Below, piece after piece: positions 512 to 51,482 of a stretch of DNA of 64,000 nucleotides. The position numbers and the translations under genes were made by a program. The notes under the pieces are model-generated. The model saw only the letters and a program-made list of their open reading frames with translations, was not told the origin of the DNA and searched no databases. The stretch is from an uncultured bacterium. GTDB taxonomy: Bacteria; Bacillota_I; Bacilli_A; RFN20; CAG-826. The DNA lies in assembly GCA_949290395.1 (NCBI GenBank), contig CASERQ010000004.1:12457-76456 (forward strand), in the 5' to 3' direction. How positions within the stretch are numbered: the stretch's first letter is position 1; the number at the start of each line of letters is the position of its first letter.

Positions 512-3280
512 ATGCGCTTATTTAAAACTTTAGCAAAGAAATTATTCAGAGATATCTTTAAAAATTTTAAGCAATTTATCTCAATTGTTTTTATTATCGG
601 AATCTCTGTAACTTTATATGTAGGGCTTGATGCTAATGCTCAGTCTTTTGAAAATAGAGTTAATAATGTTTATCAAAAGACAAATGTGGCTGATGAATGG
701 ATTACAATAAGTCCTAATTTTGTCAATGAAGAAGAAATGGCAAGTGATCTTGCTTTTATAGAAGATTTAGCAGGAGATGATGAAGGAGGAATGGTTGAAA
801 CTAGGTTTTATCTTCCAACATCGTTAGCCTCTTTTTCTGTAAATGCTCTTGTAATGGACCATTTACCTAAAATAAATACTCCTTATGATATTGAAATGGT
901 TTATTACACCGATAAAGATTTCTTTTTTGTAGATAAAGCTTTAATTGAAAGATATGAAGAAGATACCAATACTGTTTTTAATGTTGGTGACACTTTACCT
1001 TTAAATATTGAATCTTCATTTTTAAAACAAGCAATAAATCAAATCACATCAGATCCAGAAAGTTTAACTATTATATTAGATAGCTTTATTGATGATTCAT
1101 CTCTTGATGAGACATTTAAAACACTTTTAAAAACTATATCATCTCAGTTTTCTAGTGAAATTGGTTCGATAATCAATAACATTGTTGGCGTTTTATTTTC
1201 TGAGAATCAAATTCAACTTAACTTAAAAGTTAATGGAATTATGTCTCATCCAGAAAATATTGATAATGGTGAGTTTTCAAATTCAAATTTCCTTATTTCA
1301 ACTAGGTTACTTTTAGGAAGCGTTGTTGAATATATTGGAAATAAATTTTCTTCTTCGATTTTAATAAGTGAAATCGAATCTTATATCGAAACAAGCGGAA
1401 ATACTTTAATAAATAATGTATTAACTAGAGTATTAGAGTATTTAAATGAAGGCAATAATGCATTAGCATTAGATGCTGCAATTATGGTAGTTGTTAATAC
1501 CCTTCAAAATGATATTAACGATGGAAATAATGCTGAACTTGAAGCATTTATTTCTAATCTTTATAACCAAATCGTCGTAAAACTCGCCCCAAATGTTGAT
1601 GTTGAGACTTTTGAGGTTGATGTTGAAAATCACTTTGCAAATAAAACTAATAACAACTTATTAGCGGCTTTAAAGCGTTCAAGCTATCCTTCAATGTTAC
1701 AAGTTGAAAATGATATCAATCAAGCAAAGCAACTTGCTCTTGTTTTTCCAATCATATTTTTTGTAGTCGCTTTATTGATTGTTTTAACTACAATATCTTC
1801 TTTAATCTTAAAAGACAGAGTACAAATTGGAACCTTTAAAGCGCTTGGAATTAGAAAGAGAAATATTGCTTTTTATTATCTTGCCGAGATGAATATTGTT
1901 TCTTTACTTGGCGTAATAATTGGGTTTATTGTTGGACCTTTATTATTGCCTTTCATCATGAATATAAAATATAACATTTTATATTCGTTACCACAAATGG
2001 AATATTATTTCCCATGGTTAACTGCTTTTATAGTATTTATTATTGTTGCTGTTTTGGTTAGCGGACTTACCTTAATTCTTTTATATAGTGAATTAAAAGA
2101 AATGCCAACTGAAACAATGAGAACAAAAGCTCCTAAGATTCAAAAATTTAAGGCACATAAACATATCATTAAAAACACATCATTTATGATGGCCATTCGT
2201 AATATTAAAGTTCACTTTGCTAAATCATTAATGGTTGTAATTGGTGTTATGGGTTGCACTGGATTATTAATCTGTGGAATGGGGATTGATGATACTTTAA
2301 ATTATGGTAAAAACTGTGATTTAGAAAATTTCTACGATTCAGACATTACAATAGGCTTAAATGGTTCTATGGATAGAGGTCTACTTACTGAAGAACTTTT
2401 AAGATATGAAGAAGTTGAAAAAGTAGAAGAATACAGTGTTATCGCAGGTAATATAAATGCTACAGATGCAACAATAACCACGCAAATCTACGGTGTAAAT
2501 CAAAATTCTGACTTTTTTAAATTTGATAAAGATACTATTGATGGAGTTTGGGAACCAAGCGGAATTGCTTTGACTGAATCAGTGGCTGAAGATTTAGGCG
2601 TACAAGTTGGAGATGAAGTTAATTTTGATATTAATGGAACAGTTTATACAAAAGAAGTTGTTTATATTTTCTATGCTTTCTTTGTAAATGGGGCATATCT
2701 TTATACCGACACTGAACCAGAACTTTTTAAGACTTCAACGAATTGTTGGGTTGATCTTAAAGAAGGAGTTAACGGCAATGCTTTTAAAGAAAAAGTTTTA
2801 GCAGAAAATACTCATGTTTCATCATGCGCAACAAAAGAAGATATGAGAGTAACTATTGATGGCTACATGTCTTCAATTGGAATGATGACAAATACTGTTA
2901 AAGTTTTTGCAATTTTACTCGCCATTGTTGTTTTAATTAATCTTTCCATATTAAATACCAATGAAAGAATGCGTGAACTTGCAACTTTAAAAGTTTTAGG
3001 TTTCTCTAGAACTAAAATTGTTATGTCTTTAACTATTGAAATGCTTATTTTAACTATAGTTGGTGGTTTACTCGGCTTAGCTATTGGTCTACCTTTAGAA
3101 TATTTAGTTTTAAGTGTTAATGAAACGCCTCTAGTCTCATGGTTATATCTAGTTTATCCAGAAACATATGTAATTTCTTTCTTTATAAGCGTCTTAACTG
3201 CTTCAGTTGTTAACTTATTTATGTATTTTAAAGTCGATAAGATTTCAATGAGCGAATCATTAAAGAGCGTCGACGAATAA
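512..3280 (+). CDS. FtsX/MacB-family ABC permease with very large extracytoplasmic domain (922 aa)
   Basis: N-terminal TM helix, about 380 aa hydrophilic domain, TM cluster, second large loop, C-terminal FtsX-like 3-TM bundle. Start is 1 nt after the upstream ATPase stop. Confidence 0.8.
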   Translation: MRLFKTLAKKLFRDIFKNFKQFISIVFIIGISVTLYVGLDANAQSFENRVNNVYQKTNVADEWITISPNFVNEEEMASDLAFIEDLAGDDEGGMVETRFYLPTSLASFSVNALVMDHLPKINTPYDIEMVYYTDKDFFFVDKALIERYEEDTNTVFNVGDTLPLNIESSFLKQAINQITSDPESLTIILDSFIDDSSLDETFKTLLKTISSQFSSEIGSIINNIVGVLFSENQIQLNLKVNGIMSHPENIDNGEFSNSNFLISTRLLLGSVVEYIGNKFSSSILISEIESYIETSGNTLINNVLTRVLEYLNEGNNALALDAAIMVVVNTLQNDINDGNNAELEAFISNLYNQIVVKLAPNVDVETFEVDVENHFANKTNNNLLAALKRSSYPSMLQVENDINQAKQLALVFPIIFFVVALLIVLTTISSLILKDRVQIGTFKALGIRKRNIAFYYLAEMNIVSLLGVIIGFIVGPLLLPFIMNIKYNILYSLPQMEYYFPWLTAFIVFIIVAVLVSGLTLILLYSELKEMPTETMRTKAPKIQKFKAHKHIIKNTSFMMAIRNIKVHFAKSLMVVIGVMGCTGLLICGMGIDDTLNYGKNCDLENFYDSDITIGLNGSMDRGLLTEELLRYEEVEKVEEYSVIAGNINATDATITTQIYGVNQNSDFFKFDKDTIDGVWEPSGIALTESVAEDLGVQVGDEVNFDINGTVYTKEVVYIFYAFFVNGAYLYTDTEPELFKTSTNCWVDLKEGVNGNAFKEKVLAENTHVSSCATKEDMRVTIDGYMSSIGMMTNTVKVFAILLAIVVLINLSILNTNERMRELATLKVLGFSRTKIVMSLTIEMLILTIVGGLLGLAIGLPLEYLVLSVNETPLVSWLYLVYPETYVISFFISVLTASVVNLFMYFKVDKISMSESLKSVDE

Positions 3281-3382
3281 TTTTAAATATTGGTCATAAT
3301 AAAAAATTTTTAAGAATTTTTATAATTATCTACTTTTTATATAGTAGAGGTCATATGCATCAAGCATAAGATTTTTTCTATC

Positions 3383-3720
3383 GCCAAAGGTTAAAGGCGT
3401 TAAAACTTGCTTATTAGTGAAAACCTAGTAAGTTATTGACAACAGGCGAGGCACTTAAAAAGTTAATAACCGAAAGGCTATAAACTAATAAGTTGTTAGG
3501 AGTTATGGAAAATGTCATATGTCTGATTCTGATTTTATTGATCATTCGAGAGATAAAGAAAGATGATGGCAGACATGACCATCATCACAACTAACAACCA
3601 CTTTATAAAGTGCTCTCGCCTCTTGTTTCAAGATTACGAGGTAAGGACATATTAGTAAAAGTTGAACGGAAAGGCAATAGAGGGGCAAAAAATTTCAGTC
3701 TGTCACTTGAACAATTAGAT
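3383..3720. ncRNA. GC-enriched structured element of unknown class between convergent genes; contains a candidate 29-aa hydrophobic ORF (3505..3594)
   Basis: Long-range complement caggcgaggcactt (3441-3455) / aagtgctctcgcctcttg (3609-3626). Nested complements gtcatatgtctg / cagacatgac and gatgatgg / ccatcatc. GC is well above the flanks. Confidence 0.3.
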
Positions 3721-3837
3721 ATACTGGAAATAATTTTATATTTTTATTGAAAATATACATATAAACAAATAACTTTCCAAAATTTGTGTAAAAAAAGATG
3801 CGGCAGGGCAATCTACCGCATCGTGAAGGGGTTATAT

Positions 3838-3868
3838 CCTCGGAGTACCGAGGTTTTTTTCTTTTTTG
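3838..3868 (+). terminator. Rho-independent terminator (cctcggagtaccgagg + T-run)
   Basis: Perfect 6-bp GC-rich stem with 4-nt loop followed by tttttttctttttt. It lies in a convergent intergenic region and implies a short plus-strand transcript ending here. Confidence 0.5.
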
Positions 3869-4045
3869 TGGGTATTAAAGGGGGGAGTATACCCACAACT
3901 ATATAAACAAGCGAACTATATTCTTGTTTATAAGCAAGTTAAGGCAATTACGGTGGAATTATATCTCTCAATAATTCCTAACAGATATCTTTTATACTAT
4001 TAATACAGGCTAGTTGAAAGTTTGTTGGAAAAATTTTAAATATTT

Positions 4046-4996
4046 TTAAAGATTTTTTTCTAGCGTTTCAATTTCGCCTTCTTCATTGAAAGTATAAGTA
4101 CAAACAATAGGCTTATCATCGACATTTTCTTCATTGTATGAACATTCATAATTCATAGAACCTTTATCGAAAACTTTGAAGATAAGTTTATTATTTAGTC
4201 CTTTTCGAGAAAGAATAAATTGATTATAGCCTTCTTTATTTAAAAAGTTACAATTAAAAATATTCTCTTGTTGATATTTAAATGAAAAATCAATTGATGA
4301 ATCTTTGTTTTCGGTTACGTTAATTGCGTAATCTTTATAAGGTATGGTTGTTGGATTTAATGAAATATTTAATAAACAGGAACGATCAACAACTTTTCCG
4401 CCAATATTAATTTCCATAATTGGCTCAGAAGCATTGAAAACGCTGCTCTTTGAGAAAAGATAAGCCTTAAATGAGTTAAGATCCTTCTTTTTAAATAAAA
4501 TATCGTAGTCTTTCTTTAAGAAATTATCTTTAATGGTTTCTTTAATATTGAATTTTTCATTATTTAATTCTTTTTCAGTATTTTCGAAAGAGTAATTAAT
4601 TCTATCTTTGTTAGTATAAGTGTAATTTAAAAAAGCAATGGTTGGTAAAGCGTGATCATTAATATAATTATCATCTAAGTTTATAGAATCCATAGTGTTA
4701 TTTTCGATAGCAAGTCGAGCTAAACCCAAAGATCCAACAATATGAGATGCGAAATTATAATTTTCGATGCTATCATAAACGCTTTCGATGTAAGTTAATG
4801 GTAATGCAAGTGTTAAACCTAAAACCGATGCAGCTACAGCGATATTAACCGCACCTAAAACAAATCCACCCTTATTAATGATTCTAGGTTTCTTACTGAC
4901 GAATGAAACTTCGCTCATTTTAAGGATGTCATTTGAGGTAATGTCGATTTGCTCGGTTTCAAATGCTTCTTTTATTTCATTTTCTAAGTTTTTCAT
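4046..4996 (-). CDS. Putative anti-sigma factor (single-pass membrane protein with extracytoplasmic domain)
   Basis: Overlaps the 3' end of the ECF sigma gene by 20 nt. Has a cytoplasmic N-terminal segment of about 45 aa, one TM helix (GGFVLGAVNIAVAASVLGLTLALPL) and a large C-terminal domain. No family motif recognised. Confidence 0.55.
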   Translation of the reverse strand: MKNLENEIKEAFETEQIDITSNDILKMSEVSFVSKKPRIINKGGFVLGAVNIAVAASVLGLTLALPLTYIESVYDSIENYNFASHIVGSLGLARLAIENNTMDSINLDDNYINDHALPTIAFLNYTYTNKDRINYSFENTEKELNNEKFNIKETIKDNFLKKDYDILFKKKDLNSFKAYLFSKSSVFNASEPIMEINIGGKVVDRSCLLNISLNPTTIPYKDYAINVTENKDSSIDFSFKYQQENIFNCNFLNKEGYNQFILSRKGLNNKLIFKVFDKGSMNYECSYNEENVDDKPIVCTYTFNEEGEIETLEKNL

Positions 4997-5513
4997 TTGT
5001 GAGAGCCTCTCTAACTTTTTTTAACCCCTCATTGTATTGCCATCTTACTGTGTTCTCGTTTCTTCCAAGGGTTTCAGCGATTTCCTTATATTCTAATCCG
5101 TTAATTAATCTGAGAATAATTACGTTAAAGACATCAGGAGTTAAAACCTCTTTCATAACGCGAATTATTTCACTGTGATCAACATAATCTTCTTCCTCAA
5201 TAGAAGCATTCTCTAATGGAAGTTCTGGATCTTCAACATATCTTTTATTCTTTTCGATATAGTTTAAAGAAAGATTACGTGAAGTAGTGTAAAGATAGCC
5301 AAGGATTGATCTATCTGGAGTCATGTCTCCTATATTCTTAATAAATTTAATATAAGTGTCGCTAAGAATATCTTCTGTAGCCTCCTTAGATTTTAAGTAA
5401 GAATATATGTTCGCAAAAATTTTACCTTTAGTGTCGCTATAGATTTCATTAAAGGCAGTTTTATCGCCTGCGATAAATCTTTGACATAACTTGTAAAGCT
5501 CAATATCCTTCAT
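4977..5513 (-). CDS. ECF-type RNA polymerase sigma-70 factor
   Basis: Region-2-like N-terminus and a C-terminal region-4 HTH (YKEIAETLGRNENTVRWQYNEGLKKVRE). 178 aa. Translationally coupled to the downstream membrane protein. Confidence 0.75.
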   Translation of the reverse strand: MKDIELYKLCQRFIAGDKTAFNEIYSDTKGKIFANIYSYLKSKEATEDILSDTYIKFIKNIGDMTPDRSILGYLYTTSRNLSLNYIEKNKRYVEDPELPLENASIEEEDYVDHSEIIRVMKEVLTPDVFNVIILRLINGLEYKEIAETLGRNENTVRWQYNEGLKKVREALTNEKLRK

Positions 5514-28593: not shown

Positions 28594-29943
28594 TTAAAAA
28601 TACAAGGTTTCTTCTAAAGGCACATTTTCTATAAACATGATGTAGTAGATTGGTAAGTAAATGACTTTCTCTTTTTTGTATACTGTTCTTTCGTTTGACA
28701 AAACATATCCGTGTTTTATTTTATATTCGCTATTTGAAAGAAATTTATTGAGTGCACTATGAACCGTATAATCTTTGCCAGATTTAACTTCGATAGGTAA
28801 AGTGCAGAGATTATTATAGTTATCAATAAGATAGTCTACTTCGCCTTTCAGTCTATTGTCGTAATAATATAATTCATATCCATGAGCTATAAGTTCGCTT
28901 GCTACAACATTTTCATAAACTGAGCCAAGATTAATACTTTTCTTATCATCAAGAACGGCATGAATGTTAGTTCCGTATAAAATGTTAGTGAGTAGACCGA
29001 CATCATTTAAATATAGTTTTAATAGATTTTTAGTTTCCGAACTTTTTAGTGGATAGACTGGATTAGAAATGGCTTTAACTTCTAACGAGATCCCTGCATT
29101 AATGAGATAATCAAATTCATCAGCATAAGCAGAAAATCTTGATCCCTTTTTATCTTCTATATCTTTTACTACAAGACGTTTTTTCTTGTTTTCTAGATTC
29201 GATGGGATTAAATCATATATTCGAGAAATTTTTAATTTATGTTCCTTGTCATACTTTGAAGCGTCGGCTTTATAGTATTCGTGTATTTCACTTTGGAGTT
29301 CTCTAACAAGTTTAATGTTATGTGTAGCAAGATAAGTGTTAACAACGTCAGGAAGCCCGCCGACTAGAAGATATTTCCTGAATAAATCCATTAGCCTGTT
29401 ATGAAGATTTTCGTCGAGGCTTTCAAGATTAATAAATTTATTTCGAATTGTTTCAATTGCGAATTTGTTAAATCCATTAGCTATAAGGAACTCTTCAAAA
29501 TCTAAAGGGTACATACGTATTTTACGAATGCTACCCATTGGAATAGAAGTTGTGTTGGCTAGAGTCACTCCAAGAAGAGAACCGCTAGCGATATATGTAA
29601 ATCTATCTTCATCTTTTAAAAATTTTAATAGTGTAAGTAAATCAGGATATTGTTGGATTTCGTCAATAAAAATTATCGTATCTTTTTTTGAACCAAGTTT
29701 ACTCCCAGCAACAGCACTTAATTCTAAGTAAAAATCCTCGGTAGTTTTAACTTCCGAAAAAAGTTTATCGCCGTTAAAATCTTCTACCATATTGATTTCA
29801 ACAAAGTTAGGAAAAAGTTGTTCGGCAACTCTTCTGACTATAAAAGTTTTACCAACTTGTCTTGCGCCATCGATTATTAGAATTTTTTTGGAATTTAATC
29901 TTAAATGATCTTCTATTGTTTTTTCTATTTTTCTAAATAACAT
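28594..29943 (-). CDS. AAA+ superfamily ATPase of the COG1373/DUF4143 type
   Basis: Walker A GARQVGKT, Walker B IFIDEIQ, C-terminal DUF4143-like region. 449 aa. Confidence 0.65.
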   Translation of the reverse strand: MLFRKIEKTIEDHLRLNSKKILIIDGARQVGKTFIVRRVAEQLFPNFVEINMVEDFNGDKLFSEVKTTEDFYLELSAVAGSKLGSKKDTIIFIDEIQQYPDLLTLLKFLKDEDRFTYIASGSLLGVTLANTTSIPMGSIRKIRMYPLDFEEFLIANGFNKFAIETIRNKFINLESLDENLHNRLMDLFRKYLLVGGLPDVVNTYLATHNIKLVRELQSEIHEYYKADASKYDKEHKLKISRIYDLIPSNLENKKKRLVVKDIEDKKGSRFSAYADEFDYLINAGISLEVKAISNPVYPLKSSETKNLLKLYLNDVGLLTNILYGTNIHAVLDDKKSINLGSVYENVVASELIAHGYELYYYDNRLKGEVDYLIDNYNNLCTLPIEVKSGKDYTVHSALNKFLSNSEYKIKHGYVLSNERTVYKKEKVIYLPIYYIMFIENVPLEETLYF

Positions 29944-30708: not shown

Positions 30709-30797
30709 TGGTGCCCGGGACCGGAATCGAACCGGTACGGTATTGCTACCACAGGATTTTAAGTCCTGCGCGTCTACCTATTCCGCCACCTGGGCAC
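30709..30797 (-). tRNA. tRNA-Leu (anticodon TAA), class II, CCA encoded
   Basis: Reverse complement gtgcccaggtggcggaataggtagacgcgcaggacttaaaatcctg...ggttcgattccggtcccgggcacca. Long variable arm. Confidence 0.85.
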
Positions 30798-30802
30798 GAT
30801 AG

Positions 30803-30878
30803 TGGTGATCCACTGGAGATTCGAACTCCAGACCCCTTGATTAAAAGTCAAGTGCTCTACCGACTGAGCTAGTGGATC
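30803..30878 (-). tRNA. tRNA-Lys (anticodon TTT), CCA encoded
   Basis: Reverse complement gatccactagctcagtcggtagagcacttgacttttaatcaagg...ttcgaatctccagtggatcacca. Confidence 0.85.
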
Positions 30879-30887
30879 ATATGTTAA

Positions 30888-30963
30888 TGGCTGGGGTGGC
30901 TGGACTCGAACCAGCGAAATGACAGAGTCAAAGTCTGTTGCCTTACCTCTTGGCTACACCCCA
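30888..30963 (-). tRNA. tRNA-Gln (anticodon TTG), CCA encoded
   Basis: Reverse complement tggggtgtagccaagaggtaaggcaacagactttgactctgtc...ggttcgagtccagccaccccagcca. Confidence 0.85.
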
Positions 30964-30971
30964 AGACCTTT

Positions 30972-31055
30972 TGGTGGGAGGGGGCAGATTCGAACTGCCG
31001 AACCCGAAGGAATTGATTTACAGTCAACCGCGTTTAGCCACTTCGCTACCCTCCC
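30972..31055 (-). tRNA. tRNA-Tyr (anticodon GTA), class II, CCA encoded
   Basis: Reverse complement gggagggtagcgaagtggctaaacgcggttgactgtaaatcaa...ttcgaatctgccccctcccacca. Confidence 0.85.
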
Positions 31056-31075
31056 GGCTATATATTTCACGTTAA

Positions 31076-31151
31076 TGGTGGATGTTACAGGGCTTGAACC
31101 TATGACCTCCGCCGTGTAAAGGCGATGCTCTCCCAGCTGAGCTAAACATCC
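31076..31151 (-). tRNA. tRNA-Val (anticodon TAC), CCA encoded
   Basis: Reverse complement ggatgtttagctcagctgggagagcatcgcctttacacggcgg...ggttcaagccctgtaacatccacca. Confidence 0.85.
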
Positions 31152-37878: not shown

Positions 37879-37963
37879 GCGCGAGTGGCGGAACTGGTAG
37901 ACGCGTACGTTTGAGGGGCGTATAGGTATTCCTGTGTGAGTTCGATTCTCATCCCGCGCACCA
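37879..37963 (+). tRNA. tRNA-Leu (anticodon GAG), class II, CCA encoded
   Basis: gcgcgag-tg-gcggaactggtagacgc...anticodon loop ttGAGgg...gagttcgattctcatcccgcgcacca. One A/C mismatch in the acceptor stem. Confidence 0.75.
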
Positions 37964-38864: not shown

Positions 38865-39893
38865 TTACTCAATAATCTCTTTTTGTTGTTTTTCATTTGT
38901 ATTCTTATTTTCATATTTTTTAATACTCTTAAAGCCAAAATAATAGAAATTTCTCAATCTATTAGATAACTCCTCATTATCTAAAACTAAAGCATCGCTC
39001 CCAAAACGTAAAAAGTATTGGAATAGTTGGTTAATAGAAGCCTCAAAATAGTAAATATCATCTTCAATTAATATTGGTTTAGGTCGATTAATAAATATTT
39101 TTGTATAAGACTTTTGGCCTTTTTTAGTTAATTTAATTTTACATTTTATTATCGGAGAATTTATAAAGTGTGGCTCGTTTTTATCTAGATCTTTCTCTAT
39201 TTTTTCCTTTAAAGATGGAGATAAGTTGTCCTTAAAAGATCTAGAAACTCGCAAATCTTTTAATTTATAGAGGTTAATTACGTTATATGTAGTGGATGTG
39301 TAATAAATTAAATAGGCAAATTGTCTATCTTTTGAATTAAAAATACCTAATGGAGACACTTCGTATTTTATTTCTGTCCCCTTGTTATTTATAACTTTAA
39401 AGAAAATTTGTTTGTTGTTTTTAATGGCACTTTTAATTAAATCTATTTCTTCTTTAAATATAATTCTTTCTCTTTCGTCTTGATTAAGCTTTGCGTATTC
39501 ATTAAATAATTTCCTCAAATAACCGCTTAGAGTAAAGATGTATGAGTACTCGCTATATTCAATATCAAGTAAAGCGCCTTCAGATTCTTTTGTTGATATA
39601 AATGTTAATTCGCAATCTTTTTTAGTATCTGATTCTTCGTTTTTTTCTTTTATTTTCAATATTTCATGAACTAAATCTTCCTTGTTTTTATTGTCTTTTA
39701 AAAGGAGAAGTAGGTTATTTTCAAGCTTGCTAATTTTACTATTGATTACTTCATAGTAATTAGAAATTAGTCGATTAATAAACCTATTTTTGTTTGAACT
39801 GCCATCATTTTTTGCAAATCTAAAAGCATCAATATCATTTAGTAATACTGAATACGTGTAATATGATAACATTACTTTATATTTGTGTGACAT
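38865..39893 (-). CDS. Hypothetical protein (342 aa)
   Basis: Long ORF with K/E/N-rich composition. No recognisable catalytic motif. Confidence 0.45.
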   Translation of the reverse strand: MSHKYKVMLSYYTYSVLLNDIDAFRFAKNDGSSNKNRFINRLISNYYEVINSKISKLENNLLLLLKDNKNKEDLVHEILKIKEKNEESDTKKDCELTFISTKESEGALLDIEYSEYSYIFTLSGYLRKLFNEYAKLNQDERERIIFKEEIDLIKSAIKNNKQIFFKVINNKGTEIKYEVSPLGIFNSKDRQFAYLIYYTSTTYNVINLYKLKDLRVSRSFKDNLSPSLKEKIEKDLDKNEPHFINSPIIKCKIKLTKKGQKSYTKIFINRPKPILIEDDIYYFEASINQLFQYFLRFGSDALVLDNEELSNRLRNFYYFGFKSIKKYENKNTNEKQQKEIIE

Positions 39894-40019
39894 AAGTATA
39901 TATTTTATCTACCTTTTATTTATTAAATTTATCAAATAGTACGATATTTATCAATAAAATTACATACTATATAATTTTTATTTTCTAGCATTTCACTTAA
40001 TAAAATTTACACTTATAAT

Positions 40020-40600
40020 GTTCATGTAACCTGATGAAGTTGGTCTTACAGACCGTCAGGATTCTTAGAATGTGAGTGGTTTAATAAGGATACTTGTTAA
40101 ATGACGAATATCTTATATAGAGATATATAAGGAAGGCTATTAAATTAACCTTATTCTAAGAAGTGCTTTTATTAAATTTTAAAAGTTAAAGCAACGAGTG
40201 ATCCGGATCTATAAGTGACTAAAAGCTAGCTGGTCCGCCATACTGCTAGTAGTGTGAGAGACTACCAGGTAAGAGGCAAACTCAATAAGGATCTCTGAGG
40301 TGACGTTTAAGCAATTAAACTATAAGGATTGCAAAGGTACGAGTAGCTAAATATAGACTCAGCTTGGCGAATGAATGGTTATCTTTTTAGGAAAGTAATA
40401 CCGACGTTTAGTGAAAGTTACTAGGTTTATCTAGTTTAATCTTTAAGTCTTCGATAGAAGATGGGGTTAGTAGTGTATAAGTCGCTCTTATACGCTTGGG
40501 CTAACTTCGATTAATGGCTGAAGAAACAGAGTTTAATAAAAGTAAGGCGAAGGCCTACGCTTTAAAAATATTTACCCATCAATAAATGGGTAAATATTTT
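40020..40600 (+). ncRNA. Candidate large structured RNA of unknown class (about 575 nt)
   Basis: Strong GC enrichment against AT-rich flanks; no ORF over 40 codons. Putative promoter (tttcac...17 nt...tataat at 40013-40018). Strong terminator aaaaatatttacccatcaataaatgggtaaatattttttt at 40563-40600. Confidence 0.4.
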
Positions 40601-40737
40601 TTTATTATTCGATTTCTTTAAGTAATATTTTATTGATTTAGTAAATGCCTCGTGACAGCATTTTCATGTTCATACAACTTCATGTTGCATCATTCTTCTT
40701 TAAATATATTGGATGATTTATAAATTTAATTTTTTAA

Positions 40738-40772
40738 AATGTCCAAAAATTCGGACATTTATTTTTTTGTAT
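40738..40772 (+). terminator. Hairpin + T-run (aaatgtcc aaaaattc ggacattt atttttttg), terminator-like
   Basis: 8-bp stem and T7 tract about 50 nt upstream of the FtsH-like gene. Could be an attenuator or the end of a short transcript. Confidence 0.45.
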
Positions 40773-40821
40773 TTAGAACGATAAAAAATCTGGTTTAGAT
40801 TTAAGGCAAGGAGATTTAGAA

Positions 40822-42051
40822 ATGGAAAAAAATGTATTCTTAAAAAACGTTTATGGTTATAAAAAGATTAAAGATGAGTTGTTCTTAATTAGAAGTTGGT
40901 ATCTAGATGAAAAAATTAAGGAAGAAAAGAAAGAGTTTCTTCCTAAAGGTATCCTTTTCTATGGTGAACCAGGCAATGGCAAAACTTTATTATTAAGGGA
41001 ATATTCAAAAAGCTTTGGTTTTAAGGTGTTTGTATTTGAAGGAAAGGAGGAAAACTTAAACAAGAATTTAATTAGTATTTACGAGAACGCCAAAAAAGAA
41101 AAAAATGCAATTGTTGTTATTGATGAATTAGATAGGTTGGTTAAAAGAGATGATAAATTAGAAAGAATCCTACAAACCCAACTTGATGGTCTTAATAACG
41201 AAGGAACTGTCCTCACTTTAGCAAGTGCTAACGATTACGATGCCTTGCCAGATGCTTTATTAAGAGAAGGTCGATTTGATAGAAAATTCTGTATTGATGT
41301 CGAAGATAAAAAAGATAATAAAGAAATTTTAGAAAAGCTTTTAAAAGAAAGAGAATTTAATATTAATGAATATGAACTTGAAGAATTAAACCTGCAATTA
41401 TTTGGTGAACCCATCAGTAAAATCAAATCCCTCTTGAATAGCGTATGCTTTAGATATGGGAAAAGTGCAAGCATTGATGATTTCTTAAAGGAATATTCTT
41501 TTAACGAATCAGGACATATTCAAGATGATAACTTAAATGTACCGGATTATGTTGCTGTTCATGAAGCAGGACACGCTTTATATGCAAAATTATTCGCTAA
41601 AAGATTAATTTTCTTAAGAGTAAATTGTAATAAAGAAGGTGGGAAAACGCACTGCTCTAGTTATGATAATATTCAAGACAGCGTTTATTGCTATAATCGT
41701 ATCGAAACGTCTCTTGCAGGAATGGCAGCAGAAGAAATTATCTTCGGCAAGCATAATGTTGGATGTAACAATGATATGAAAAAAGCATACGAAATGTCTT
41801 ATACAATTATGAATAATTCTATGCTTAATGGGTTAGATTTCTACTCACCAGCCCTTTATACAATTAATAACGGTCCTTCTGAATATGAAATGATGAAACA
41901 TGGAATTAGAACAAGTAAATTTATTGAAAAAGAGTTTAAACTCGTTAAAAAAAGATTAAAAAAATATAAAAAAGAAATCTTATTAATCGCAAAAATTATT
42001 AAAGAAAAGAGATGTTTGACTAGAGACGACATTAAAAATGTATTAGATTAA
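40822..42051 (+). CDS. Soluble FtsH-like AAA+ ATPase / M41 zinc-metalloprotease fusion (no TM or periplasmic domain)
   Basis: Walker A GEPGNGKT, Walker B VVIDELD, AAA arginine finger LREGRFDRKF (cf. FtsH RPGRFDR), HEXXH HEAGHAL, FtsH-like LAGMAAEEIIFG. aaggag SD. Confidence 0.8.
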   Translation: MEKNVFLKNVYGYKKIKDELFLIRSWYLDEKIKEEKKEFLPKGILFYGEPGNGKTLLLREYSKSFGFKVFVFEGKEENLNKNLISIYENAKKEKNAIVVIDELDRLVKRDDKLERILQTQLDGLNNEGTVLTLASANDYDALPDALLREGRFDRKFCIDVEDKKDNKEILEKLLKEREFNINEYELEELNLQLFGEPISKIKSLLNSVCFRYGKSASIDDFLKEYSFNESGHIQDDNLNVPDYVAVHEAGHALYAKLFAKRLIFLRVNCNKEGGKTHCSSYDNIQDSVYCYNRIETSLAGMAAEEIIFGKHNVGCNNDMKKAYEMSYTIMNNSMLNGLDFYSPALYTINNGPSEYEMMKHGIRTSKFIEKEFKLVKKRLKKYKKEILLIAKIIKEKRCLTRDDIKNVLD

Positions 42052-47542: not shown

Positions 47543-48118
47543 TTGAATCAATTATTAAAAATTATAAAAGAAAGGAGTTTTATCATTAAAATAATTTTAT
47601 TGGATAGAAACTATATGATGGTTTTAGCACGGCAAAAATATTTTGAGAGTGAAAAAGAAGTTGAAATAGTTTGTGATGCAGTAGAACATTATTTATCAAA
47701 AAACTTTGTTGATGGAATCGTAACTCCGGGAAATTCTTATGGAATAATGACTGGCGGCTTTGATAAAGGTATTAGAAATTATTTTGGTTTGGCTTTAGAG
47801 AATAAAATCCAAAATTATATAGATTCAAATTTGCATTTTAAACAACAAGTTGGAACAAGTTTTATTATTGAAGGTGGCAAAAATAATATTAAAGTTATTC
47901 ATACACCTACAATGGAAGAACCTTCTGAAATTAAAGATTTAAACGTAATTTACCTTTCCACTATGTCTTCTTTAAAACTTGCAAAGAAAAACGATTTAAA
48001 TTCTGTAATTCTCCCTGCTTTTGGTGGAGCAACAGGGAAAGTAAATTTCTTTAAAGTTTCTGAATTAATGTATAAAGCTTTCAAAGATTTTAAGAAGCAA
48101 TCACTTAAATGCGTGTAA
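47543..48118 (+). CDS. Macro-domain-like protein (putative ADP-ribose binding/processing)
   Basis: VDGIVTPGNSYGIMTGGFDKGIRNYFG aligns to the macro core [27 protein letters not shown] (N-G-GG-D-G-I-G positions conserved). Start uncertain: TTG 47543 or ATG 47615. Confidence 0.45.
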   Translation: MNQLLKIIKERSFIIKIILLDRNYMMVLARQKYFESEKEVEIVCDAVEHYLSKNFVDGIVTPGNSYGIMTGGFDKGIRNYFGLALENKIQNYIDSNLHFKQQVGTSFIIEGGKNNIKVIHTPTMEEPSEIKDLNVIYLSTMSSLKLAKKNDLNSVILPAFGGATGKVNFFKVSELMYKAFKDFKKQSLKCV

Positions 48119-49816: not shown

Positions 49817-50110
49817 ATGAAATTGGAGTTTGAGATTAGTGATGATGATTACAAAATGCTGCAAAAGTATTTTTCTCTAAACGGAGAAACCTTAGAAAGC
49901 ATTATTCAAAGTAAAATCAAAGAAGGTCTAAAAAGTATAGAAACAATTAAAAAAGAGAATGAAAAAAATAAAGTTGCGATGAAAATTATAAAAAATATAA
50001 AAGAGAGGAGACTTGTAGATTTGAGTATTGTCAAAATACAAAAAATATATAATATAGGTTTTCCGCTTTCGGGAAAGATATATTTTTATCACAAGTTGTT
50101 CGTTGAATAG
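49817..50110 (+). CDS. Hypothetical small protein (97 aa) immediately upstream of the second FtsH-like gene
   Basis: ORF ends at the second FtsH-like gene, 38 nt before its start at 50151. No SD. Helical, K/E-rich. Confidence 0.35.
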   Translation: MKLEFEISDDDYKMLQKYFSLNGETLESIIQSKIKEGLKSIETIKKENEKNKVAMKIIKNIKERRLVDLSIVKIQKIYNIGFPLSGKIYFYHKLFVE

Positions 50111-50150
50111 TAAATATAGATTATTAAAAAAAGAAAGGAAATTTATAGAT

Positions 50151-51482
50151 ATGGAGAATCAAAAAGTTTTTGGCAAAGTAATTGGTTGTGAAACGCAAAT
50201 TAATGAGTTAATTAATATTATTAACTGGTTTAAAAATAGTGAGAAAAACAAAATGAAGGGACTAGATGTACCTAGAGGTATTATTCTTTATGGAAAGCCA
50301 GGAAATGGTAAATCATTAATAATGAGAGAATTAAAAAATTATCTGAGTGATACTCCATGCTATGTTTATAATCGCGAGTCTTTCAATGTCGTCAAAGAAC
50401 TTAATAATCTCTTTCAGAAAGCAAGCTTAGACAGTAAAGCTGTTATTTTAATCGATGAATTAGATTTATTAATTGACAAAGATAAAAGTGTAGTTAGATG
50501 TTTACAAGAAAATCTCGATGGAATCGAAGAAGTTAGTAAAAATATATTAGTAGTCACGGCTTGTAACTATTTATACGATATACCTGAGCCTCTAAAAAGA
50601 AGAGGAAGATTATCGTCATTAATTGCTTTTTCTTGTCCCAACACAGACGAAATTATCAAGCTTGTTAAAAATCAGATTGATAAATATGGTCTTAATAAAG
50701 AAATAGCTGAAGATGATGAATTGATTAATGCTTTTAATGGTGATTCATTTGTAACTATTAAGTCGATGATTGATGAAACGATTTTAACAAAGGGATCTTT
50801 TGATATAAATAGTGACGATATTATTGAAACTATATATAAATATGAAAATGGATCGATTAAAAATAAAGAAAAATCTCCATTTAATGTCGCAATACATGAA
50901 GCTGGTCATATTATATTAAATTTAAAGTATGCTCACGCAAATAAATTAAGTGGGGTAAAAATTAATGGCGGTCAAGGTTATTGTGTTTCTAAACAAACAA
51001 ACGAGTCAACTAAATATAGTGATTTTTTAAATAGGGCAGAAATTTTCTTGGCTGGGAGACAAGCCGAAAGAATTTTCTTCAAAGAAGGTAGTATTGGATG
51101 TAGCGATGATTTAGAAAGTGCAAGGCACATTGTTTATTCACTTGTTAATAGTTGCGGCTATTTAGGTTTAGGGTATGTACTTCCTAAAGAACATAATAGA
51201 AATCATAGTGTCTCTGCTTTCAAACTCAATAAGAACGAAAAGAAAGAAGAAAAAATTCTAAAAAGATTAGACAAAAAAGTTTACCGATATTTAAAAGGCA
51301 AAAAGAAATTGGTATATAATTTGGCTGAAGCTATTTACGAAAAAGGATATATGACAGCTAAAGAGATAAAAAGATTTGTTGAAAATTATTATAGTCGTTC
51401 TCAACAAAGCCTGCCTAATATCGAGAATAAAAAAGTTATACAACAAGAAATTTTTGATTTAAATAAATTGAAAGCTTTCTAA
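50151..51482 (+). CDS. Soluble FtsH-like AAA+ ATPase / M41 zinc-metalloprotease fusion, paralog 2
   Basis: N-terminus MENQKVFGKVIGCETQINEL parallels paralog 1 MEKNVFLKNVYGYKKIKDEL. GKPGNGKS, ILIDELD, HEAGHII, FLAGRQAERIFF. SD aaaggaaa; ORF-track TTG 50103 is less likely. Confidence 0.75.
   Translation: MENQKVFGKVIGCETQINELINIINWFKNSEKNKMKGLDVPRGIILYGKPGNGKSLIMRELKNYLSDTPCYVYNRESFNVVKELNNLFQKASLDSKAVILIDELDLLIDKDKSVVRCLQENLDGIEEVSKNILVVTACNYLYDIPEPLKRRGRLSSLIAFSCPNTDEIIKLVKNQIDKYGLNKEIAEDDELINAFNGDSFVTIKSMIDETILTKGSFDINSDDIIETIYKYENGSIKNKEKSPFNVAIHEAGHIILNLKYAHANKLSGVKINGGQGYCVSKQTNESTKYSDFLNRAEIFLAGRQAERIFFKEGSIGCSDDLESARHIVYSLVNSCGYLGLGYVLPKEHNRNHSVSAFKLNKNEKKEEKILKRLDKKVYRYLKGKKKLVYNLAEAIYEKGYMTAKEIKRFVENYYSRSQQSLPNIENKKVIQQEIFDLNKLKAF

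Follow-up and report, generated by a model that had tools for sequence, protein, structure and literature searches.

A full-length ROOL RNA gene divergent to a WYL1-like gene in a chromosomal island of an uncultured Bacilli bacterium

What does a long stretch of DNA encode when it holds no protein-coding gene, and why should it lie head to head with a putative regulator? The question is raised by an intergenic segment in a 64,000-nucleotide stretch (hereafter the window; coordinates count from its first base) of contig CASERQ010000004.1, assembly GCA_949290395.1, from an uncultured bacterium of the Bacilli. The segment is enclosed by genes at 38865–39893 on the minus strand and 40822–42051 on the plus strand, and an initial annotation, made by inspection of the sequence, placed in it a candidate large structured noncoding RNA of unknown class. 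Here we find that it holds a ROOL RNA (Rfam RF03087), and we are highly confident that the gene is complete and independently transcribed. In related loci the same RNA recurs beside a divergent gene for a WYL1-like protein, with conserved boxes in the control region between them. From comparative genomics we tentatively propose that in this chromosomal lineage ROOL would pair with the divergent WYL1-family protein in a conserved two-gene module.

In their 2017 description of ROOL, Weinberg et al. (PMC5737381) gave the RNA a length of ~581 nt and six multistem junctions. A search of the window with cmscan matched positions 40007–40576 (+) to the ROOL model from end to end (model positions 1–574 of 574, not truncated) at 195.5 bits, compared with a gathering score of 99.1 (E 1.7e-42), and at gathering thresholds this was the single non-tRNA match in the whole window. 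A permissive scan of 39700–40900 returned nothing apart from ROOL better than E 0.24, and no Rfam match to GOLLD, OLE, RNase P, tmRNA, 6S or raiA even at E up to 1, which excludes these families; ARAGORN likewise found no tmRNA. The initial annotation was thus right to set RNase P and tmRNA aside, while of the three classes to which it had likened the segment by size, ROOL is upheld by cmscan and OLE and GOLLD are not. Its 'unknown class' reading fails because Rfam assigns the segment to ROOL over the full model, at about twice the gathering score; the cmscan check that it had proposed returned neither rnpB nor ssrA. This copy is a further member of a catalogued RNA family and no new RNA class.

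The Rfam structure projected onto the window RNA comprises 148 pairs, of which 118 (80%) are canonical. The ROOL motifs GGAUAC, CUAUAAG, AGUAGC, GUGAAAGUU, GUCGCUC and GGCGAAGGCC are present and are invariant or nearly so among 15 homologues; in the window, motif starts (+) fall at 40088 (GGAUAC), 40320 (CUAUAAGG), 40342 (AGUAGC), 40411 (GUGAAAGUU), 40481 (GUCGCUC) and 40546 (GGCGAAGGCC). Between the flanking genes (39894–40821) no open reading frame (ORF) of at least 25 amino acids occurs on either strand, in agreement with the initial description. The G+C content of the predicted transcript (40024–40607) is 34.4%, with a maximum of 40% in 40200–40399, compared with 29.4% for the whole window, 25.3% and 29.3% for the upstream and downstream genes and 15.4% for the 130-nt spacer; the excess over adjacent coding DNA noticed at the outset is therefore real, but 'GC-rich' holds in relative terms only. 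Folding of the RNA strand gave a minimum free energy of −162.3 kcal/mol, against −128.5 ± 6.2 for shuffled sequences (z = −5.45; 0 of 100 shuffles as good), which bears out the many local complementarities that had been pointed to. Could a decayed coding gene or an ordinary spacer have produced a spurious Rfam match? The A+T-rich setting, and the low-complexity A/U sequence that matches the outermost model helix, would allow for this, but an E value of 1.7e-42 over the full model, the covariation of many helices, the lack of an ORF and the invariant ROOL motifs common to 14 homologues despite 42–49% overall identity leave it a negligible probability.

The fold itself is supported by covariation among 12–15 homologues, the second of the checks proposed at the outset. 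A DNA pattern of three motifs retrieved 11 homologues on IMG/VR viral contigs and several more in GTDB genomes, all of them ROOL by Rfam. In a 15-sequence MAFFT alignment the projected structure paired 60.9% of cells, compared with 51.3% in shuffled controls (0/500) and 37–45% when partners were slid; in a 12-sequence alignment, which holds more intermediate relatives, these values were 73.3%, 61.4% (reached by 0/500 shuffles) and 35–46%, and double changes occurred at 92 pairs.

Cryo-electron microscopy (cryo-EM) in 2025 showed that ROOL assembles, protein-free, as a hollow D4 homo-octamer ~28 nm wide whose interior holds a disordered linker (PMC12286853). An octamer also comes from Ling et al., as summarized in PMC12515178, and, going by that summary together with PMC12286853, has been reported for three ROOLs (env-120, E. 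faecalis and Firmicutes CAG:227). By homology to these the window RNA should form a homo-octameric nanocage: it would fold to a flat monomer and self-assemble, protein-free, into a hollow particle ~28 nm across. One contact can be followed in the alignments. A hairpin loop, UGAG (40255–40258, +), pairs with CUCA (40281–40284, +) in a junction just 3′ of the helix enclosing that loop. In the 12-sequence alignment this pair (helix 21) is formed in 81% of cells. Homologues carry compensatory changes, to UGGCA/UGCCA and UUGACA/UGUCAA (phage ROOLs) or UGAGA/UCUCA, at the same sites. We infer, from the text of PMC12286853 rather than its figure, that these are loop L8 and junction J6/8 of bridge B4, an intermolecular contact of the cage by cryo-EM that was formerly called a pseudoknot. 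An automated search of the MAFFT alignment for more covarying pseudoknots returned mainly nested helices and nothing trusted beyond the loop–junction pair, and the palindromic L18 kissing loop (bridge B6), sought from its text description alone, was not located in the window ROOL. The segment 40349–40406 (+) aligns to a long unpaired region of the model (about positions 350–407), is poorly conserved and differs in length and sequence among homologues; it is the counterpart of the disordered internal linker in the cryo-EM structure and would sit inside the cage.

Is this RNA made from its own transcription unit, as first suggested? A sigma-70-type promoter lies at 39992–40019 (+), with −35 TTCACT (39992–39997), a 16-nt spacer and −10 TATAAT at 40014–40019, one base from the 40013–40018 originally given; it matches 10 of 12 consensus positions. 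A consensus scan of this A+T-rich DNA is at chance level (8 sites vs 7.5 expected), so we base the promoter call on conservation. The −10 hexamer is kept 6–8 nt upstream of a conserved (G/A)UAACC in nine related loci whose spacers have otherwise diverged, and appears at that distance as TATAAT, TACAAT, TAAAAT or CATAAT in loci L018, L025, L156, L157, L158, L162, L163 and L166 (L numbers designate the loci compared). With the window's GUAACC beginning at 40026 and its −10 box ending at 40019, transcription is therefore expected to start near G40026 (±2 nt), and the predicted ROOL transcript runs from 40026 to the T-run of the terminator at 40607 (+). A further promoter-like site at 39948–39975 (+; TTATCA, 16-nt spacer, TATAAT), upstream of the ROOL promoter, overlaps a degenerate sequence box described below and is not conserved in relatives.

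The intrinsic terminator (40564–40607, +) consists of a 16-bp stem with a 6-nt loop, the stem-loop spanning 40564–40601 (initially 40563–40600), followed by the T-run; in the 1.4 kb scanned, three terminator-like sites occurred where 0.3 were expected. In the relatives L018, L025 and L027/L156 a hairpin directly follows GGCGAAGGCCUA, its sequence different in each. Because the start is placed near 40026, Rfam's 16-bp outer helix P1 (40013–40027 with 40558–40573) falls on promoter and terminator DNA: it shares bases with both the −10 box and the terminator stem and includes seven non-canonical pairs, and at most 3–4 P1 pairs beside the core could form in the window RNA. Taken together with the ROOL match, the conserved −10 box and the terminator bear out the structured noncoding RNA with its own signals that had been envisaged.

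The gene following on the same strand (40822–42051) encodes an FtsH-like AAA+/M41 protein, and the RNA might accordingly be taken for a cis-acting leader (long 5′ untranslated region or riboregulator) of a protease operon. The same order recurs in L156/L027, where the two FtsH-like proteins share 54% identity. The strong terminator (40564–40601) argues against this, as does a second terminator-like hairpin (AAATGTCC...GGACATTT plus T-run) at 40737–40760 (+), past the ROOL terminator but ahead of the FtsH-like start codon, which gives the gene a double insulation from ROOL transcription. In other loci of the subclade the genes downstream of ROOL are unrelated or convergent, more distant FtsH-like homologues occur without ROOL, and the ROOL of L. 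salivarius is a discrete, stable 520-nt RNA (PMC5643018); a leader function is thus extremely unlikely. A general link between ROOL and FtsH-like genes was rejected, as none of 126 loci of distant AAA+/M41 homologues on viral and metagenome contigs holds a ROOL; the association is limited to the window and L156.

The gene on the other side is a different matter. It encodes a 342-aa protein (38865–39893, −), divergent to ROOL, which we call WYL1-like, and in nine of the 13 loci examined a ROOL adjoins a WYL1-like gene in this same divergent arrangement. In these loci (window, L018, L156, L157, L158, L161, L162, L163, L164) the ROOL is full-length and above the Rfam gathering score, and lies 112–134 nt from the WYL1-like start codon. 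Identity to the window protein is 81% in L018, 79% in L156, 55% in L157, 50% in L158, 45% in L163, 44% in L162 and L164, and 27% in L161. The subclade of the window copy takes in the ROOLs of L018, L025, L016 and L027/L156 (83–84% identity) and, at a greater distance, those of L157, L158, L162, L163 and L164 (61–73%). The family loci were found by sequence search; among them, the L166 contig ends exactly at the ROOL start, and L165 ends too early to tell. The genes on the outer sides of the pair vary in nearly every locus. We found no paper linking ROOL to WYL proteins in a literature search of incomplete coverage.

The region shared by the two genes carries conserved boxes. Across 10 spacers the heptamer TATCTAC occurs 18 times where 0.24 are expected (no more than 3 in any of 2000 shuffles); its offsets from (G/A)UAACC are fixed at −120 and −65, and it often stands within a GTAGATA-N3-TATCTAC palindrome. 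A GATA-N2-TATC palindrome lies between the two boxes. In the window, box 1 is exact (39906–39912, +; 120 nt upstream of GUAACC, with the WYL1-like start codon 13 nt away) and stands in an imperfect palindrome, GTATATA-TTT-TATCTAC. Box 2 is degenerate (TTACATACT vs consensus TTATCTACT; 39960–39968, +; about −65 from GUAACC) and stands where an exact box 2 occurs in L018, L156, L157, L158, L162, L163 and L166. The intervening GATA-N2-TATC palindrome is at 39943–39952 (+), with similar palindromes at the same place in L018, L156, L162 and L164 (GATAATTATC, GATATTTATC, GATAAATATC and CGATTAATATCG). Relative to the predicted ROOL start, box 2 lies near −60, a usual position for an activator. Upstream of the two family genes that have no ROOL (L159, L160) the TATCTAC boxes are absent. 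In L025 (1341–1480, minus strand) a ROOL and a spacer related to that of the window are present with decayed boxes (TTATATAC) and no WYL1-like gene, a pattern suggestive of recent loss of the partner protein.

What kind of protein is this neighbour? It has a tandem ribbon-helix-helix (RHH) N-terminal domain, a WYL domain and a C-terminal domain; Pfam gives weak WYL and WCX matches and PADLOC a WYL match at E 1e-11. A 16-member family profile has one full-length match to a solved structure, PDB 6OAW (RspWYL1; E 2.7e-25, profile positions 7–323 of 327 aligned with residues 26–389 of 393). The AlphaFold (AF2) model of the protein, with a predicted local distance difference test (pLDDT) of 88 and a predicted template modelling score (pTM) of 0.78, agrees with this: Foldseek aligns it to chain B of the same entry (6oaw_B) at E 1.4e-15 and a TM score of 0.72 over 377 aligned columns. 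DriD, PafBC, CapW and BrxR come next, at E 1e-7 to 1e-3, over the C-terminal two-thirds. RspWYL1 is an accessory protein of type VI-D systems with the tandem-RHH/WYL/C-terminal layout, which binds single-stranded RNA (ssRNA) and boosts Cas13d (PMC5935466, PMC6547453). In the WYL1-like family, strand 1 carries two nearly invariant lysines, K4 and K6. Neither a Cas13d-like ORF nor a CRISPR repeat family was found in the 64-kb window. Among 1.84 billion cluster representatives searched by profile, 1768 full-length relatives of ~330 aa were recovered, 477 of them at E ≤ 1e-30, and the architecture extends far beyond the Cas13d-associated branch; Pfam and PHROGs barely recognize the family. No relative was found in IMG/VR or among GenBank phages.

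That ROOL and the WYL1-like gene are functionally coupled is, in our estimation, probable; the particular mechanism is a less secure matter. From the gene order and the boxes, we propose as the likeliest mechanism that the WYL1-like protein would bind the TATCTAC boxes of the shared 130-nt region through its RHH domain and, when bound, would control ROOL transcription and probably its own. The signal may be a single-stranded nucleic-acid ligand sensed by the WYL domain, as it is for DriD, PafBC, CapW and BrxR going by the titles of their PDB entries and by PMC9122601. Alternatively the protein might bind the ROOL RNA directly, an option we consider because RspWYL1 prefers ssRNA. A bolder reading is that ROOL, in a lineage of uncultured gut or rumen Bacilli that carries it on the chromosome, would be no phage accessory but the RNA half of a conserved module whose WYL1-family protein either binds operators at −120 and −65, switching ROOL in response to a nucleic-acid signal, or binds the RNA; and that this module stands at the head of variable, defence-island-like regions (FtsH-like protease with Macro, GmrSD, HipA/Fic, Schlafen-AlbA, nSTAND). 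We give this reading a probability of roughly 0.45.

Several observations weigh against our favoured explanation of the segment. Two loci have a WYL1-like gene without ROOL (L159, L160; in L160 an FtsH-like gene takes ROOL's place) and two have ROOL without the WYL1-like gene (L025, L019), and phage and viral-contig ROOLs have no WYL1-like ORF within the flanks examined. The paired loci are related metagenome assemblies, so that the counts are not independent, and co-inheritance contributes to them because the loci sampled are related. The ~1768 WYL1-like representatives are a set at 50% identity whose genomic contexts lie outside our sample, and a tblastn search against plasmids found one distant Fusobacterium WYL protein with no ROOL beside it. 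In RspWYL1, ssRNA binding needs Arg131 and Arg133 on the strand of RHH2 (PMC6547453), and these are not conserved in the family, where the aligned strand reads YELTF. On the RNA side, the window ROOL scores below phage ROOLs (195.5 vs 285–315 bits) and may be a variant that lacks P1.

This brings in the alternative that the adjacency of ROOL and the WYL1-like gene is a co-inherited accident in a small clade of uncultured Bacilli, with the boxes serving as promoter or UP elements. All positive loci come from gut or rumen-type metagenomes of apparently related low-GC bacteria; the ROOLs and the proteins diverge in parallel, from 84 to 44% and from 81 to 27% identity, respectively; the four loci named above lack the pairing; and our shuffle controls ignore relatedness. 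Yet the outer genes differ in nearly every locus while the orientation and the spacing are kept, at −120 and −65 the boxes remain exact in spacers that otherwise diverge, and in L025, where the gene is lost, the boxes have decayed too. WYL regulators are, moreover, normally divergent to their targets with operators in the shared spacer (PMC9122601). We therefore regard mere co-inheritance as unlikely.

A second alternative is that the window ROOL is of the classical kind, an accessory RNA of a temperate phage or prophage beside phage tRNAs. Most described ROOLs do occur in phages or prophages near tRNA islands (PMC12286853, PMC5737381), and all 11 of the IMG/VR ROOL loci fetched adjoin tRNA arrays. 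In the window, ROOL sits in a low-GC stretch of ~14 kb, the accessory island of the initial annotation, which runs from a tRNA-Leu(GAG) gene (37879–37963, +) to a rhamnose operon starting at ~52800, and G+C falls from ~0.41 to ~0.23 just after that tRNA. This lone tRNA-Leu is the sole tRNA ~2 kb from ROOL, and it and the low G+C could be read as traces of a phage. But genes for an integrase, capsid, tail or terminase are missing from the island, its PHROGs matches being to generic ATPase and macro-domain families only, and no direct or att-like repeat of the tRNA-Leu 3′ end was found, the right edge included. The exact ROOL subclade pattern is absent from IMG/VR and from Joint Genome Institute (JGI) metagenomes, just as relatives of the WYL1-like protein are absent from IMG/VR, and no tRNA stands next to ROOL in the subclade loci. 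A blastn search of the window ROOL against GenBank phages and PLSDB plasmids gave no match; ROOL diverges too far for searches at the nucleotide level. The typical setting, in phage or prophage DNA beside tRNA arrays, is thus not found in the window. Since ROOLs outside prophages were already noted by Weinberg et al. (PMC5737381), the atypical context leaves ROOL membership untouched. Given the lack of integrase, phage structural genes and att repeat, and the absence of the subclade pattern from IMG/VR and JGI metagenomes, the window ROOL is chromosomal and non-prophage, and a phage origin of the classical kind is very unlikely. Five host tRNA genes (Leu, Lys, Gln, Tyr, Val) are clustered at 30709–31151 (−), 9 kb upstream.

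The remainder of the island encodes two soluble FtsH-like AAA+/M41 proteins, one Macro-domain protein and several unknowns; the FtsH-like and Macro genes are at 40822–42051 (+), 47543–48118 (+) and 50103–51482 (+). The FtsH-like proteins combine AAA+ and peptidase M41 domains with an intact HEAGH motif, and no transmembrane domain is among their Pfam matches. The L156 ROOL has downstream of it an FtsH-like gene (54% identity) and, directly after that, a Macro gene (3893–5134 and 3096–3755), and in L160 an FtsH-like gene (3478–4818) is divergent to the WYL1-like gene with no ROOL between. The FtsH-like and Macro genes may be an uncharacterized protease/Macro module under WYL1-like control. PADLOC found no complete known defence system among the island proteins, only weak IetA and DarG matches plus the WYL match.

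In the other loci, the neighbours of the pair include GmrSD (L156), HipA/Fic (L163), Schlafen-AlbA with a helix-turn-helix (HTH) gene (L018) and nSTAND fragments (L158), and these neighbourhoods have the character of defence islands. A gene for an AAA_14/DUF4143 ATPase recurs within a few kilobases of the pair (window 28594–29943, −; L158 7162–8433; L162 1441–2784). Two subclade loci carry an S-adenosylmethionine (SAM, S-box) riboswitch no more than a few hundred bases from ROOL, upstream in L025 (1952–2054, −) and immediately downstream in L158 (5071–5158, −), which may be coincidence.

What would the proposed module mean for ROOL? It is among the few large bacterial RNAs with a solved structure yet no known function or partner. 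If the bolder reading is correct, ROOL would gain its first proposed dedicated protein partner or regulator, and the nanocage would be tied to a stress or anti-phage response. The RNA itself is already catalogued; what is new is its pairing with the WYL1-like gene and the boxes, of which we found no description in the literature searched. Together these make ROOL function experimentally approachable, as they offer a candidate regulator, a candidate RNA-binding protein and a defined promoter.

RspWYL1 shares the full three domains of the window protein (tandem RHH with a helical insertion, WYL Sm-like barrel and alpha/beta C-terminal dimerization domain), but structure-based identity is only ~19%, Arg131 and Arg133 are missing, and the neighbour is ROOL instead of Cas13d. 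DriD, PafBC, CapW and BrxR share the WYL and C-terminal (WCX-like) fold, and we count as further likenesses that their genes adjoin their targets in defence or stress islands, that their operators are promoter-region repeats and that their ligand is single-stranded nucleic acid; they differ in having a winged HTH rather than a tandem RHH as DNA-binding domain, and protein-coding operons rather than a structured RNA as targets. GOLLD is likewise a large ornate RNA of both phage, tRNA-adjacent and non-phage settings and an RNA-only nanocage (a 14-mer), but its sequence and fold are unrelated, and the segment has no Rfam GOLLD match at E up to 1. A precedent in setting is the long noncoding RNA of the L. 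salivarius UCC118 megaplasmid, also a ROOL (Cousin et al. 2017, PMC5643018), which is more abundant than 16S rRNA and dispensable. Like the window copy it is non-phage, from the Bacilli, transcribed on its own and next to a transcription-regulator gene; in contrast to the window, that neighbour, LSL_1884, is described as an HTH regulator downstream of the RNA, and the WYL1-like protein had no tblastn match in Lactobacillus plasmids. With known ROOLs in general the window RNA shares its length of ~580 nt, the multi-junction fold, the motifs, the kissing pair, the variable linker, the stand-alone transcript and a nearby tRNA. From phage ROOLs it differs in score (195 vs 285–315 bits), and its P1 appears to be cut back to a few pairs at most, since the conserved promoter directly abuts the core; it is also chromosomal and non-phage, and paired with a WYL1-like gene and TATCTAC boxes. 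This suggests two ROOL lifestyles, one phage-borne beside tRNA arrays and the other chromosomal with a regulator.

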